From assembly GCA_963734495.1 (NCBI GenBank), contig CAVTHK010000013.1:288001-352000 (forward strand): DNA of 64,000 bases. Reading direction: 5' to 3'. Made by a program: the position numbers and the translations under genes. A model generated the notes under the pieces. It did no database searches. It saw only the letters and a list, made by a program, of their open reading frames with translations, and was not told the DNA's origin. This DNA is from an uncultured Spirochaetota bacterium. Its GTDB lineage: Bacteria; Spirochaetota; Spirochaetia; SZUA-6; CAVTHK01. Shown piece after piece: positions 17,394-23,661 of this stretch; within the stretch, counting starts at the first letter, position 1, and every line of letters starts with the position of its first letter.

Positions 17394-18447
17394 ATGAAAC
17401 ACGCAGTTGTCTCGCGCATCGCGCCGAGGCTCGCGGCGGGGCTCGCCCTCATCGTCGCGGCGTCGCTGTCGGGATGCGCACGCTCGACCGCGGGCAGCGC
17501 CCAGGGGGCGGTCCGCATCGGCGTTTTCGTCCCGGGCTTCGTGCAGGGGAGCCCCACGTACGAGATGCTCGTGGCGGGCACCAGGAAGGCCGCGGCCGAG
17601 CGCCCCGACACGGCCGTGGACGTGGTCGAGGCCGGCTTCAACCAGGCGGAGTGGCAGGACAAGCTCACCGCCCTCGTGGCCACCGGCAAGTACAACCTGA
17701 TCGCGACCACGAACTCGGCGATGCCCGCGATCTGCGCCGAGGTCGCCAAGCGCTTCCCGAAGCAGAAGTTCGTCGTCATCGACGGCCGCCTGGTTCACCC
17801 GCAGATGTACACGGTGATCTTCAACCAGGTCGAGCAGGGATACCTGGTGGGCTACATGGCCGGCCTGGTCACCGACGAGCGACATGCCCGGCGCCAACCC
17901 TCAGAAGAAGGTCGGGATGATCGTGGCCCAGCAGTATCCCGCCATGGACCGGGCGATCCGGCCGGGGTTCGAGAAGGGCCTCAAGGACGTCGACCCCGCC
18001 ATCACCCTCGACTTCCGGGTGATCGGCAACTGGTACGACGCCGCCAAGGCGGGCGAGCTCGCCGACAGCATGTTCGACGCCGGCGTCGACGTCGTGCTCA
18101 CGATCGCCGGCGGCGCCAACCAGGGCGTGGTCAAGGCCGCCAGGGAGCGCGGCCGCTACGTGCTGTGGTTCGACTCCAACGGCTACGCCGTGGCTCCCGG
18201 GACCGTCGTCGGCTCGAGCGTGGTGGCCCACGACGAGGCCACTTACCGCGCGGTCAAGGCCTTTCTCGCGGGCAAGCTGGAGCTCGGCAAAGCCGTCACG
18301 CTGGGAGCCGCCGACGGCTTCGTGACCTTCGTGCAGGACGACCCGCTCTACACGCAGAACGTCCCGCAGGCCCTGCGCGAGCGCATGAAAGCTCAGGCCG
18401 AGAGGGTGCGCCGCAACGAGCTGGGGCTCGCGATGCCGGAGCTCTGA
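17394..18447 (+). CDS. rfuA: BMP-family riboflavin-binding lipoprotein (RfuA-like), frameshift near 17875
   Basis: Lipobox LSGC; GVFVPG..SPTYEML; second frame GNWYDAAKA..IAGGANQG; directly downstream of the FMN riboswitch. Confidence 0.82.
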
Positions 18448-21055: not shown

Positions 21056-21936
21056 TGGTGCCCCTGCTCCTCGCCGCGGTCGGGGGGCTGATCACCGAAT
21101 ACGCGGGGGTGCTCAACATCGCACTCGAGGGGCTGATGCTGTTCGGCGCTTTCGCCGGCGTCCTCACGGCCGCGCACACCGGCAGCGTCGCGGCGGCGAT
21201 CCTCGTGGCCGCGGCCGCTTCGGGCGCTCTCGCCCTGCTCTACGGCCTCGCCGCTCTCAGGCTGCGGGCCGACATCTTCGTGGCGGGCATCGCCACCAAC
21301 CTGCTGGCCTCGGGCCTCACCACGGTGCTCGCGGACCGGCTCTTCGGCTACAAAGGCGTCGTCCGCTTCGCGACGTTCCCCGCCCTCCCCGCGATTGTCC
21401 CTGCGGCCGCGCTGGAGCCTCTCGGCCCGGCGGGCGCCTTCCTTCAGATTTTCCTGGACCAGAACCTGCTGGTCCCCCTCGCGTGGGCGCTCGTCGCGGT
21501 CGCATGGCTCGCCTTGGAGAAGACCCCGTTCGGGCTCCGGCTCAAGGGGACCGGCAGGGCGCCGGAAGTCGTGGCGAGCGTCGGCATCGACCCCGAGCGG
21601 TACAAAGTCACGGCGATCGCGTTGTCGGGCGTGGCGTGCGGGGTGGCGGGCGCGGCGCTCGCCATGGACCTGCAGGCGTTCGTGCCGAACCTGACCGCGG
21701 GTCGCGGCTGGATTGCGCTGGTGATCGTCTACCTCGGCCAGCGCCGGATCGCGGGGGTGGTGGTGGCTTCCCTCTTCTTCGCGCTGGCGGAGAGCTTCTC
21801 GAACTACTCGCAGGGGGTCCTGTCGCTGCCGTCGGAGATCGTGCTCGCTTTCCCTTACGCGCTGAGCCTGGCGGCCCTCGTGGTGTACTCGATCGTGCGG
21901 GCGCGCGGCCGCAACCGCGGAGGCGGGCGGGGTTGA
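21031..21936 (+). CDS. rfuD: ABC permease (RfuD-like)
   Basis: GVLNIALEGLM, TPFGLRL, AGRGWIAL; AGGAG before GTG 21031. Confidence 0.85.
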   Translation: MVHAAVRLMVPLLLAAVGGLITEYAGVLNIALEGLMLFGAFAGVLTAAHTGSVAAAILVAAAASGALALLYGLAALRLRADIFVAGIATNLLASGLTTVLADRLFGYKGVVRFATFPALPAIVPAAALEPLGPAGAFLQIFLDQNLLVPLAWALVAVAWLALEKTPFGLRLKGTGRAPEVVASVGIDPERYKVTAIALSGVACGVAGAALAMDLQAFVPNLTAGRGWIALVIVYLGQRRIAGVVVASLFFALAESFSNYSQGVLSLPSEIVLAFPYALSLAALVVYSIVRARGRNRGGGRG

Positions 21937-22031
21937 CGCGGCGGATCCTGGCCGCAGGGCTCAAGGAACAAAGTTGAAGGGCGTCTCTCGGGCGTCATAG
22001 CTCATAGGCCGGGGGCTCCGGCCCAAGGAGC

Positions 22032-22084
22032 TTGACATGCACGCACTTTTCGGTTATGTTAGCTTTGTCAGAAAAATCAGAAGA
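22032..22084 (+). promoter_or_regulatory. sigma70 promoter with TCAGAA direct repeat (candidate operator)
   Basis: TTGACA 22032, 17 nt, TATGTT 22055; TCAGAAAAATCAGAAGA at about 22068-22084. Confidence 0.55.
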
Positions 22085-22093
22085 GGCCGAATT

Positions 22094-22327
22094 ATGGGAT
22101 GTTGCGGAATCGAAGCCATTATCACCGTCGACGCGAGAGGGCAGGTGGTCCTGCCCAAGGAAGTGCGCGACCAGGCGGGGATCAGGCCCGGTGAGAAGCT
22201 CGCGGTCGTGATCATGAGGAGCGAGGGGCGCGTCTGCTGCCTCTCGCTCGTGAAGACCGATGCGCTCAGCGACGCGGTTCGTGACGTCCTGGCGCCGGCC
22301 ATGCAGGCAATAGGAGGAATGGGATGA
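22094..22327 (+). CDS. AbrB/MazE-fold protein with two CC pairs (HgcAB-associated HgcC-like)
   Basis: MGCCGIEAIITVDARGQVVLPKEVRDQAGIRPGEKL..VCCLSLVK. Confidence 0.82.
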   Translation: MGCCGIEAIITVDARGQVVLPKEVRDQAGIRPGEKLAVVIMRSEGRVCCLSLVKTDALSDAVRDVLAPAMQAIGGMG

Positions 22328-23142
22328 GCGACGATATCAGGGCCGCGGTGCGGGAGCGCTACGCGGAGACCGCGCGGAGCGCGGGCGGGTGCTGCGGGTC
22401 GAGCAGCGGGGCGTGCGGCTGCGGCTCGGCTGCCGACCAGAGCCTGAGCGTGGGGTATACGCCCGACGAGCTGGCCTCGCTGCCGGAGGGGGCCAACCTC
22501 GGCCTCGGGTGTGGCAATCCCACGGCAATCGCCGCATTGAAAGAGGGAGAGTCCGTGGTCGACCTCGGGTCGGGAGGCGGCATCGACTGCTTCCTCGCCG
22601 CCCGCCGCGTCGGTCCCTCCGGGCACGTGATCGGCGTGGACATGACGCCGGACATGCTCGACCGCGCGCGCGCCTCCGCCAAACGCTCGGAGGCCGCCAA
22701 CGTGGAGTTCCGCCTCGGCGAGATTGAGCACCTGCCCCTGGCGGACGCGAGCGCGGACGTGATCATCTCCAACTGCGTGATCAATTTGTCGCCTAACAAG
22801 CGTCAGGTGTTCCGCGAGGCGTTCCGGGTGCTGCGCAAGGGCGGCCGGGTCGCCGTCTCCGACGTCGTCCTCCTCGCCGACCTGCCCGATGCCCTGCGCG
22901 CCGACCTCGGCCTCTACGCCGGCTGCGTCGCGGGCGCCCTGCGCAAGGACCAGTACCTCGACGCGATGCGCGTGGCCGGCTTCGCGGACATCCGCGTGGT
23001 GAGCGAAAAGGCCGCCGGCGAGCTCATCTTCGACGAGGCGGAGTTCGAGCGCCTGCGCGAGGCGAGCGGTCTCTCGACCGAGGAGCTGCGCGCCCTCGGC
23101 GCCAAGGTGGTGAGCGTGCACGTGGAGGCGGTCAAGCCTTAG
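22324..23142 (+). CDS. arsM: Arsenite S-adenosylmethyltransferase
   Basis: VRERY..CC, LGLGCGNP, DLGSGGGIDC, ISNCVINLSP, GCVAGA. Confidence 0.92.
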   Translation: MSDDIRAAVRERYAETARSAGGCCGSSSGACGCGSAADQSLSVGYTPDELASLPEGANLGLGCGNPTAIAALKEGESVVDLGSGGGIDCFLAARRVGPSGHVIGVDMTPDMLDRARASAKRSEAANVEFRLGEIEHLPLADASADVIISNCVINLSPNKRQVFREAFRVLRKGGRVAVSDVVLLADLPDALRADLGLYAGCVAGALRKDQYLDAMRVAGFADIRVVSEKAAGELIFDEAEFERLREASGLSTEELRALGAKVVSVHVEAVKP

Positions 23143-23244
23143 CCGGACCGCGACGGAACGCGCGGCGGGGGCGGTCGGTCCGCTCCCGCCTTCGCGCGCC
23201 CGCGGCGGCGCGCCCCCTCGGGCGCGGGCGTCCGCGGCGCGCGC

Positions 23245-23661
23245 CTACTCCCCGATCACCTTGACGAGCACGCGCTTGCGGCGCTTGCCGTCGAACTCTC
23301 CGTAGAAGATCTGCTCCCATGGCCCGAAGTCGAGCCTGCCGCCCGTCACCGCCACGACCACCTCGCGGCCCATGATCGATCGCTTGAGGTGGGCGTCGGC
23401 ATTGTCCTCGCCGGCGTTGTGGCGGTACCGCGTGTGCGGCTTTTCCGGGGCGAGCTGCTCGAGCCAGTCCTCGAAATCCTGGTGGAGGCCGCCTTCGTCG
23501 TCGTTGATGAACACGCTCGCCGTGATGTGCATCGCGTTGCAGAGCAGCAGCCCTTCGGTGATGCCGCTCTCGAGCAGCGCCTGCTCGACCTGGGGCGTGA
23601 TGTTGAGAAACGCGCGGCGGCGCGGCACATCGAACCAGAGCTCCTTGCGGAAGCTCTTCAT
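23245..23661 (-). CDS. yjbQ: YjbQ/UPF0047 family protein
   Basis: [26 protein letters not shown]. Confidence 0.92.

Follow-up and report, generated by a model that had tools for sequence, protein, structure and literature searches.

Which protein governs arsenite methylation at a locus where the methyltransferase gene arsM is led not by arsR but by a small gene whose family bears the name of the mercury methylation system? The locus lies in a stretch of 64,000 nucleotides (nt), analyzed here as a whole and referred to as the window, from an uncultured Spirochaetota bacterium (GCA_963734495.1, contig CAVTHK010000013.1, positions 288,001-352,000, forward strand). The leading gene encodes a member of NCBIfam family NF040962, "HgcAB-associated protein HgcC", named for its association with the genes hgcAB just as the original prediction, made from the letters of the window, had stated; the location beside hgcAB that the name suggests does not hold here, where the next gene is arsM. 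Comparative analysis makes it likely that HgcC acts as a local autorepressor released from DNA by As(III), and perhaps also by Hg(II), bound at its thiols. The HgcC module is real, conserved, and apparently unpublished; it would be the metal(loid)-repressor theme built on the AbrB fold. HgcC is strongly supported as a DNA-binding autoregulator, and a candidate as an arsenite sensor.

The hgcC-arsM operon

The locus comprises five features:

22032..22060, + strand: sigma-70-type promoter, with the -35 hexamer TTGACA at 22032-22037, a spacer of 17 nt, and the -10 hexamer TATGTT at 22055-22060.
22066..22083, no strand assigned: putative operator, made of two abutting 9-bp units at 22066-22074 and 22075-22083, with TCAGA centers at 22068-22072 and 22077-22081.
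22094..22327, + strand: hgcC-family gene, encoding a 77-amino-acid (aa) AbrB/SpoVT-fold protein with Cys3, Cys4, Cys48, Cys49, and a C-terminal helix.
22312..22317, + strand: ribosome-binding site of arsM, AGGAGG, read directly within the 3' end of hgcC.
22324..23142, + strand: arsM, encoding an As(III) S-adenosylmethionine methyltransferase of 272 aa (NF008823).

The promoter matches the consensus at 10 of 12 positions and is the sole such site in 21800-23400 (mean of 0.1 in 50 shuffles), within DNA whose local G+C content is 0.49-0.52 versus ~0.7 in the surroundings. The first operator unit begins 5 nt past the -10 hexamer, the two TCAGAA copies being read at 22068-22073 and 22077-22082, and a GAGG stands 7 nt ahead of the hgcC ATG (22094). 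A 96-aa open reading frame (ORF) from 22037 was rejected as an alternative hgcC start, which would fall within the -35 hexamer. At the other end of the gene, the hgcC TGA and the arsM ATG overlap as ATGA. The arsM product scores 349.6 bits against the arsenite methyltransferase model NF008823 (cut-off 263); across 30 HgcC-led ArsM proteins, Cys63, Cys151, and Cys201 never vary and Cys24 hardly does, residues that we take to be equivalent to the catalytic cysteines of characterized ArsM. The hgcC-arsM pair is a self-contained two-gene operon, since the next gene past arsM, a UPF0047 gene, is convergent and the gene upstream of hgcC encodes an ATP-binding cassette (ABC) transporter permease. The promoter, the TCAGAA direct repeat, and the ATGA coupling to arsM claimed in the original prediction are all in place, and the window indeed contains neither arsR nor hgcAB, the 13 ArsR-type HTH_5 matches of the genome and its HgcA-like matches lying on other contigs.

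With regard to transcription, no public run covers more than 0.09 of the sampled words from 21900-23300, and the four public runs that were aligned yield mostly short pieces at conserved methyltransferase motifs from other organisms. A 90-nt contig from an RNA library, spanning the hgcC/arsM junction (22283-22366) with 6 differences, comes from a relative and possibly from DNA; it does not demonstrate a transcript, and no conclusion is based on it.

Fold and cysteine signature of HgcC

HgcC, whose sequence starts MGCCGIEA, matches NF040962 over residues 3-71 of 77 with 106.7 bits (cut-off 70), the single match above the cut-off in the whole genome. In addition, it exceeds the cut-offs of TIGR01439 (AbrB; 39.9 bits, cut-off 28.3) and of PF04014 ("MazE_antitoxin"; 34.1 bits, cut-off 24.7), the latter being its sole Pfam match, in agreement with the anticipated 77-aa AbrB-fold protein with CC pairs at residues 3-4 and 48-49. 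HTH_5 (PF01022, the ArsR/SmtB winged helix) is absent from the Pfam scan, which gives PF04014 only; no MerR family match appears in Pfam or NCBIfam at E <= 0.01, nor any ArsD domain in either collection. The separation from the ArsR and MerR classes foreseen from the letters alone therefore holds at the domain level.

A profile of 31 homologues compared with solved structures retrieves SpoVT and AbrB-family DNA-binding domains only (E 1e-5 to 0.04). The AlphaFold model of the monomer has a mean predicted local distance difference test score (pLDDT) of 77, and of 58 for the N-terminal 10 residues, and comprises (i) strands 11-12 and 18-19, (ii) a helix at 22-28, (iii) a hairpin at 36-54, and (iv) a C-terminal helix at 55-74, with Cys48-Cys49 located in the second hairpin strand, 46-54. 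The top 17 Foldseek matches of this model are all of the SpoVT/AbrB/MazE type, the best of them weak (E-value 0.011). The modeled secondary structure agrees with the strand pair, short helix, and hairpin of that superfamily, whose functional unit is an interleaved dimer.

The invariant residues of the family comprise R15, G16, Q17, P21, K22, and R25 of the loop-helix signature, the RGQ-VLPK-E-R segment being invariant among the homologues, together with C48 and C49. The cysteine survey covered 142 rows from two locus sets, of which 11 were unplaced by the pattern (9 with CC visible and 2 frame-broken); after removal of duplicates, the internal CC is kept in 126 of 126 distinct placed sequences. 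The N-tail also bears cysteine throughout, in varying patterns, nearly all of which are CC, C-x2-4-C, or CC-x8-10-C. The CC stands directly ahead of strand 1 in 80 of 101 arsM-linked sequences, Methanoculleus displays C-x3-C, 10 of 20 hgcA-linked sequences have one N-tail Cys preceded by a CC at a distance of about nine residues, and the acr3-linked clade has an additional hairpin Cys that yields C-x6-CC. The genome's two other AbrB-type proteins are free of cysteine after their likely start codons. The HgcC family is small, with 303 representative clusters at E <= 1e-10 out of 1.84 billion. A 2100-aa protein, P0141, contains 26 short matches to the HgcC profile (profile positions 41-62) and is probably a repeat protein mimicking the hairpin region.

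Gene neighborhoods of the HgcC family

One genome per GTDB species was scanned, and the best 80 of 245 confirmed relatives constitute the first locus set. In this set, arsM is the adjacent downstream gene, in the same orientation, at 63 loci and lies past one gene at 6; 7 loci have hgcA (NF040863 above the cut-off) next, 2 stop at a contig end, and the remaining 2 have another gene or too short a sequence. The intervening gene of the 6 loci is NifX-like (Krumholzibacteriota) and, once, nitroreductase-like. According to database labels, the carriers belong to Spirochaetota, Nitrospirota, Chloroflexota, Thermodesulfobacteriota, Krumholzibacteriota, Actinomycetota, Methanomicrobiales, Bathyarchaeota, and others. 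Because this sample had been ranked by likeness to an arsM-linked query, a second census applied the NCBIfam model to genomes drawn evenly.

The 401 Thermodesulfobacteriota genomes display 62 HgcC matches in 60 genomes, all above the cut-off, followed by arsM in 44 cases (4 with a gap of ~0.9-1.1 kb), by hgcA in 17, and by a contig end in 1. The same genomes contain 121 ArsM proteins above the cut-off (112 genomes), 42 of them, about a third, HgcC-led, and 118 HgcA proteins above the cut-off, of which 16 (about a seventh), and one truncated case besides, are HgcC-led. The archaeal set, 301 genomes of the phylum containing locus L049, comprises 73 HgcC matches above the cut-off in 64 genomes, with arsM next in 39, hgcA in 19, acr3 in 14, and no recognizable neighbor in 1. 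The archaeal acr3 gene, encoding ACR3 arsenite efflux (TIGR00832; 13 above the cut-off, one truncated), abuts or overlaps the HgcC gene. In 40 genomes of the window's own order, HgcC is patchy, occurring in 6 (arsM 4, hgcA 1, contig end 1). HgcA is absent from the two arsM-linked genomes that were checked, and one genome carries two HgcC paralogues, identical at 43 of 73 residues, one leading hgcA and the other arsM.

The linkage to arsM is not peculiar to this genome; with 69 of 80, 44 of 62, and 39 of 73 members arsM-linked, arsM is the commonest context of the family, and the neighborhood survey bears out the original prediction on this point. The name "HgcAB-associated" describes a minority context and misdescribes most of the members sampled, which matters for the use of hgcC as a marker of mercury methylators. 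The further proposal, a regulator for metal(loid) methyltransferases, is too narrow, as 14 of the 73 archaeal members directly precede acr3. The arsM, acr3, and hgcAB targets all handle arsenite or soft metals.

The Pfam name attached to HgcC raises a different reading, in which the protein would be an orphan type II antitoxin (MazE/PrlF/AbrB type) standing beside arsM by chance. It is in keeping with PF04014 as the only Pfam match, with the label "antitoxin PrlF" on some homologues, and with the discussion of the gene as toxin-antitoxin-associated in the accessible text of Zhang et al. (PMC10349881). The neighborhood counts contradict it, since arsM, hgcA, or acr3 is the next gene in 209 of 215 matches of the three locus sets, with no adjacent toxin gene (MazF, YhaV, PIN, and the like), and both the cysteines and the operator described below are specific to the HgcC family. 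An antitoxin is therefore highly improbable.

The kinds of target genes bear equally on what HgcC would sense. A DNA-binding repressor that responds to redox state or oxygen through a disulfide or an iron-sulfur cluster, and so limits oxygen-sensitive methylation systems to anoxia, would be served by the four to five cysteines per monomer, eight or more per dimer, and would suit carriers that are mostly anaerobes by database label, as well as HgcAB, which requires reduced corrinoid and ferredoxin. However, ACR3 and ArsM are not oxygen-sensitive, and acr3 offers no obvious reason for redox control; moreover, the vicinal CC is typical of As(III) sites, as in ArsR variants and ArsD, and unusual among cluster ligands. 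We regard redox sensing as unlikely.

Two arrangements extend the picture of these loci. A 126-aa NifX/NifB-like protein (PF02579) with a Cys/His-rich N-terminus lies between hgcC and arsM or after arsM in Krumholzibacteriota-type loci (L021, L034, L043, L067, and L074, ~40-430 nt past hgcC, and L026:3859-4236), and may be an additional metal-handling partner. In locus L188, from the window's order, the 3' end of hgcA is convergent to the end of the hgcC-arsM pair at a distance of ~90 nt; arsM and hgcA can therefore adjoin with HgcC leading only arsM. A conserved third gene after arsM was considered and rejected: in 69 arsM-linked loci, 13 without such an ORF and 8 with too little sequence, the 48 next ORFs are heterogeneous by Pfam.

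A conserved putative operator array with a 9-bp period

The pair found in the window is the only case of TCWGA pentamers 9 nt apart in its 64 kb; across the 5.38-Mb genome TCWGA-N4-TCWGA occurs at 8 sites, of which the window site alone has an all-A/T spacer. In the 260 nt ahead of each of the 80 homologues, 20.6 kb altogether, TCWGA pairs number 52 at 9 nt, 25 at 18 nt, and 14 at 27 nt, compared with 0, 1, and 0, respectively, in 606 kb of flanks. The consensus derived from 95 units, W-T-T-C-W-G-A-A-W (ATTCWGAAT-like), is a 9-bp palindrome with an ambiguous center; the unit being palindromic, the distinction between "direct" and "inverted" repeats is therefore meaningless for this operator.

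A two-unit matrix score of at least 12 is reached in (i) 76 of the 80 first loci versus 7 of 470,802 flank positions, (ii) 54 of 62 Thermodesulfobacteriota loci versus 7 of 153,932, and (iii) 63 of 72 loci of the archaeal phylum versus 3 of 195,088, sets (ii) and (iii) having had no part in training the matrix. The repeat first seen as TCAGAA in the window is thus conserved upstream of homologues. The array is present ahead of arsM-, hgcA-, and acr3-linked hgcC alike; most often it has three units (66 loci), less often two (36) or four (25). In the 14 acr3-linked archaeal loci (L246-L262), the upstream repeats resemble a diverged operator with TTCGAAAA / TTCCTAAA-like units.

Among 110 distinct bacterial loci with the array, 97 have a promoter with at least 9 of 12 consensus matches, and in 96 of these 97 the array starts between -30 and +19 relative to the end of the -10 hexamer (+5 in the window). 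Such a position is the geometry expected of a repressor that would block access of RNA polymerase to a strong promoter. An operator was also sought upstream of 11 hgcA genes that are not HgcC-led, from genomes in which HgcC heads arsM, with best scores of 12.2, 11.9, and 10.5 and all others at or below 4.4. A wider regulon is not claimed, because these upstream regions lack a clear operator, and the HgcC regulon seems confined to adjacent genes.

The operator is also pertinent to the notion that HgcC is chiefly, or additionally, a metallochaperone whose vicinal thiols pass As(III) or Hg(II) to the neighboring enzyme or pump, as ArsD does to ArsA, with DNA binding as a secondary autoregulatory trait. 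ArsD, which uses Cys12-Cys13-Cys18, was itself originally described as a repressor. The vicinal Cys pairs of HgcC, its translational coupling to arsM, suggestive of equimolar synthesis, and a similar GGCCG motif at the ArsM N-terminus, where Cys24 is nearly invariant, all speak for such a role. Nevertheless, the conserved promoter operator is explained by a regulator alone, HgcC has no ArsD-like domain by Pfam, and three structurally unrelated partners (an S-adenosylmethionine methyltransferase, a corrinoid protein, and a membrane permease) are more readily reconciled with one signal common to all than with a common docking surface. A chaperone role is accordingly judged doubtful, to much the same degree as redox sensing.

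Phylogenetic distribution of the targets

In the 80-locus tree, built from 81 alignment columns, HgcC largely tracks taxonomy. The hgcA-linked rows are scattered among the arsM-linked ones, with 6 changes for 7 rows, a value as low being reached in 83 of 500 shuffles, and the well-supported branches force just 1 change. A sister pair in Desulfobacterales comprises one hgcA-linked and one arsM-linked member (Shimodaira-Hasegawa-like approximate likelihood ratio test, SH-aLRT, 94). In the archaeal tree, the acr3-linked proteins fall on one side of a branch with SH-aLRT 97.8. A single clade of hgcA-linked members was not adopted, given their scatter in the 80-locus tree, yet the archaeal tree fails to reject it (approximately unbiased test, p-AU 0.36).

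Proposed mechanism of HgcC

Gene order, the promoter, the conservation and position of the operator, the invariance of the cysteines, and the kinds of target genes are established from the sequence and its comparison with homologous loci. HgcC would be a small swapped-hairpin (AbrB/SpoVT-type) DNA-binding protein that occupies the tandem 9-bp units, at 22066-22083 in the window, probably as one dimer per unit and cooperatively. Since these units overlap the -10 element of a strong promoter or follow directly after it, bound HgcC would keep transcription of hgcC and arsM off. A thiophilic metal(loid) entering the cell would be captured by Cys48-Cys49 together with Cys3-Cys4 of the N-tail, which would distort strand 1 and the DNA-contacting loops, detach HgcC from the operator, and allow arsM to be expressed.

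Four points are inferred, with differing confidence: that HgcC binds DNA, that it represses rather than activates, which effector it responds to, and that the cysteines are the ligands. That HgcC binds DNA is very probable, and that it represses is probable with somewhat less assurance; sensing of As(III) through its cysteines is the favored option by a smaller measure, suggested by the invariance of the cysteines and by the functions of the controlled genes. As(III) is the likeliest effector: both ArsM and ACR3, two of the three target classes, have it as their substrate, and in ArsR variants and ArsD it is known to be bound at three-thiol sites with vicinal cysteines; Hg(II) is possible for the hgcAB-linked members. 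In addition, Gionfriddo et al. (bioRxiv 10.1101/2022.10.17.512643) report, in the accessible part of the preprint, that an ArsR-like regulator, unrelated to HgcC, makes hgcAB arsenic-responsive in Pseudodesulfovibrio mercurii ND132.

According to the same part of that preprint, the P. mercurii regulator responds to S-adenosylhomocysteine besides arsenic, which brings up a local repressor with an effector that binds elsewhere than at the cysteines (e.g., S-adenosylhomocysteine or a methylated product), or an effector-free one with a structural zinc site. Such an effector would suit two of the three target classes, which carry out methyl transfer; on the other hand, the acr3-linked members are unrelated to methyl transfer, the modeled 77-aa protein, an AbrB fold plus one helix, would leave scant room for a small-molecule pocket, and the variable number and spacing of the N-tail cysteines are atypical of a structural zinc site. 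This combination of possibilities appears improbable, slightly more so than a chaperone or a redox sensor.

Several observations weigh against an As(III)-released autorepressor, or against the strength of the counts behind it. The related genomes are not independent, so that the neighborhood counts overstate the number of independent events; 42 of the first 80 loci served to train the two-unit matrix, and the later sets possibly share species with the first. The window array has two strong units only, three being the commonest number, and the acr3 clade displays a strict TCWGA pair in 5 of 14 loci, to be set against 3 pairs in 26 kb of AT-rich flanks. The promoter geometry comes from bacterial loci; in archaeal loci, where the TATA box is the reference, activation is possible. 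As for the structure, Foldseek gives no match at E <= 0.001, and the HgcC model is moderately confident (pLDDT 77) and monomeric, and does not address the closeness of the two Cys pairs.

Comparison with known regulators

The family has been noticed before. From the accessible text, it corresponds both to the gene ahead of hgcAB that McDaniel et al. 2020 (PMC7438021) call a "putative regulator" and report from 112 genomes, and to the prlF/mazE/abrB-like gene that Zhang et al. 2023 (PMC10349881) note ahead of hgcA, for the most part in archaea. That text, with the supplementary tables outside the search, makes no mention of linkage to arsM or acr3, of the cysteines, or of the operator, and full-text searches of the literature found no link of the HgcC family to arsM, acr3, or an operator. 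The hgcAB-linked members of NF040962 share the family, the Cys pattern, and the upstream operator with the HgcC of the window, which differs, together with most sampled members, in leading arsM instead (44 versus 17 and 39 versus 19), one archaeal clade leading acr3.

Compared to ArsR/SmtB repressors, HgcC would follow a shared logic, that of a small repressor that controls its own synthesis, is encoded at the head of the operon, acts at an operator placed on the promoter, and has a Cys-rich presumed As(III) site; it is found with the same kinds of targets (arsM, acr3, and hgcAB). The folds are nevertheless unrelated, HgcC being devoid of the winged-helix HTH_5, and whereas the ArsR operator is a single imperfect inverted repeat, HgcC would read an array of short palindromes with a 9-bp period. 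With AbrB, SpoVT, MazE, and MraZ, HgcC has in common the (R/K)GQ-hydrophobic-x-hydrophobic-PK-E-hydrophobic-R signature and probably the DNA-binding fold, to which it adds the invariant CC in strand 4, the Cys-bearing N-tail, and a single C-terminal helix. MraZ recognizes several short repeats in series close to the promoter of its own gene; we know of no metal(loid) sensor among these proteins. AbrB itself has, to our knowledge, no clear binding consensus, in contrast to the well-defined operator of HgcC. Finally, ArsD resembles HgcC in its small size, in its vicinal Cys pairs, and in being encoded in ars operons, but it displays a thioredoxin-like rather than an AbrB fold, its domain is not found in HgcC, and it serves the ArsA ATPase, which is absent from HgcC loci.

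It is an evenly balanced proposition that HgcC represents a structurally new class among the metal(loid)-sensing repressors, to stand beside ArsR, MerR, CsoR, Fur, NikR, and related classes. The class would comprise an AbrB-type swapped hairpin, a vicinal-thiol As(III) site, and a 9-bp-period operator array conserved from Spirochaetota to methanogens, switching on three alternative arsenite responses, namely (i) methylation by arsM, (ii) export by acr3, and (iii) hgcAB. Arsenic and mercury methylation by anaerobes determines the amounts of toxic methylarsenic and methylmercury that reach rice and food webs, and the control of arsM and hgcAB expression is largely obscure beyond one ArsR-like case. 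Were the proposal true, a large share of environmental hgcAB and of anaerobic arsM would be arsenic-controlled, mercury methylation would be tied to arsenic exposure, and a native role of HgcAB in arsenic metabolism would gain support. With a defined operator and four cysteines as candidate ligands, the hypothesis is open to direct test, and HgcC with its operator could yield a compact (77-aa) part for arsenite biosensors.

Other loci of the genome and variants of arsM

The assembly comprises 5.38 Mb in 18 contigs and is 83% complete, with one HgcC and one ArsM above the cut-offs; one of the HTH_5 matches (C11:79980-80117) lies ~2 kb from acr3. The search for hgcAB beyond the window, envisaged in the original prediction, did locate an hgcAB-like locus, on contig C3:350570-352174 (L106 4571-6174, minus strand), but one with several frame changes and without HgcC, ArsR, or operator upstream (two-unit score -11.9). 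The HgcA model matches C3:351001-351954 in six pieces, each below the cut-off; the reading frame changes between the stretch with the cap-helix motif and the sequence on either side, and the gene that comes next encodes an HgcB-like ferredoxin with two clusters. A pseudogene was not adopted for this hgcA: assembly indels are as likely as decay, because other genes are frame-split as well, including a Bmp/PnrA-type substrate-binding gene in the window (17394-18447, + strand), split over two frames at profile position 124/125, and the acr3 gene on C11:82250-83366, split between frames in the same manner.

Two variants of the methyltransferase were encountered among the homologous loci. At L029:592-2070, an HgcC-led ArsM is fused to a second methyltransferase domain, the 492-aa protein showing two matched stretches for several methyltransferase models. 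In addition, several ArsM matches, some of them HgcC-led, contain one in-frame TGA (e.g., G403:C12:32356-33186 and G162:C33:2572-3438), which may be a selenocysteine codon, NCBIfam including models of ArsM selenoproteins.

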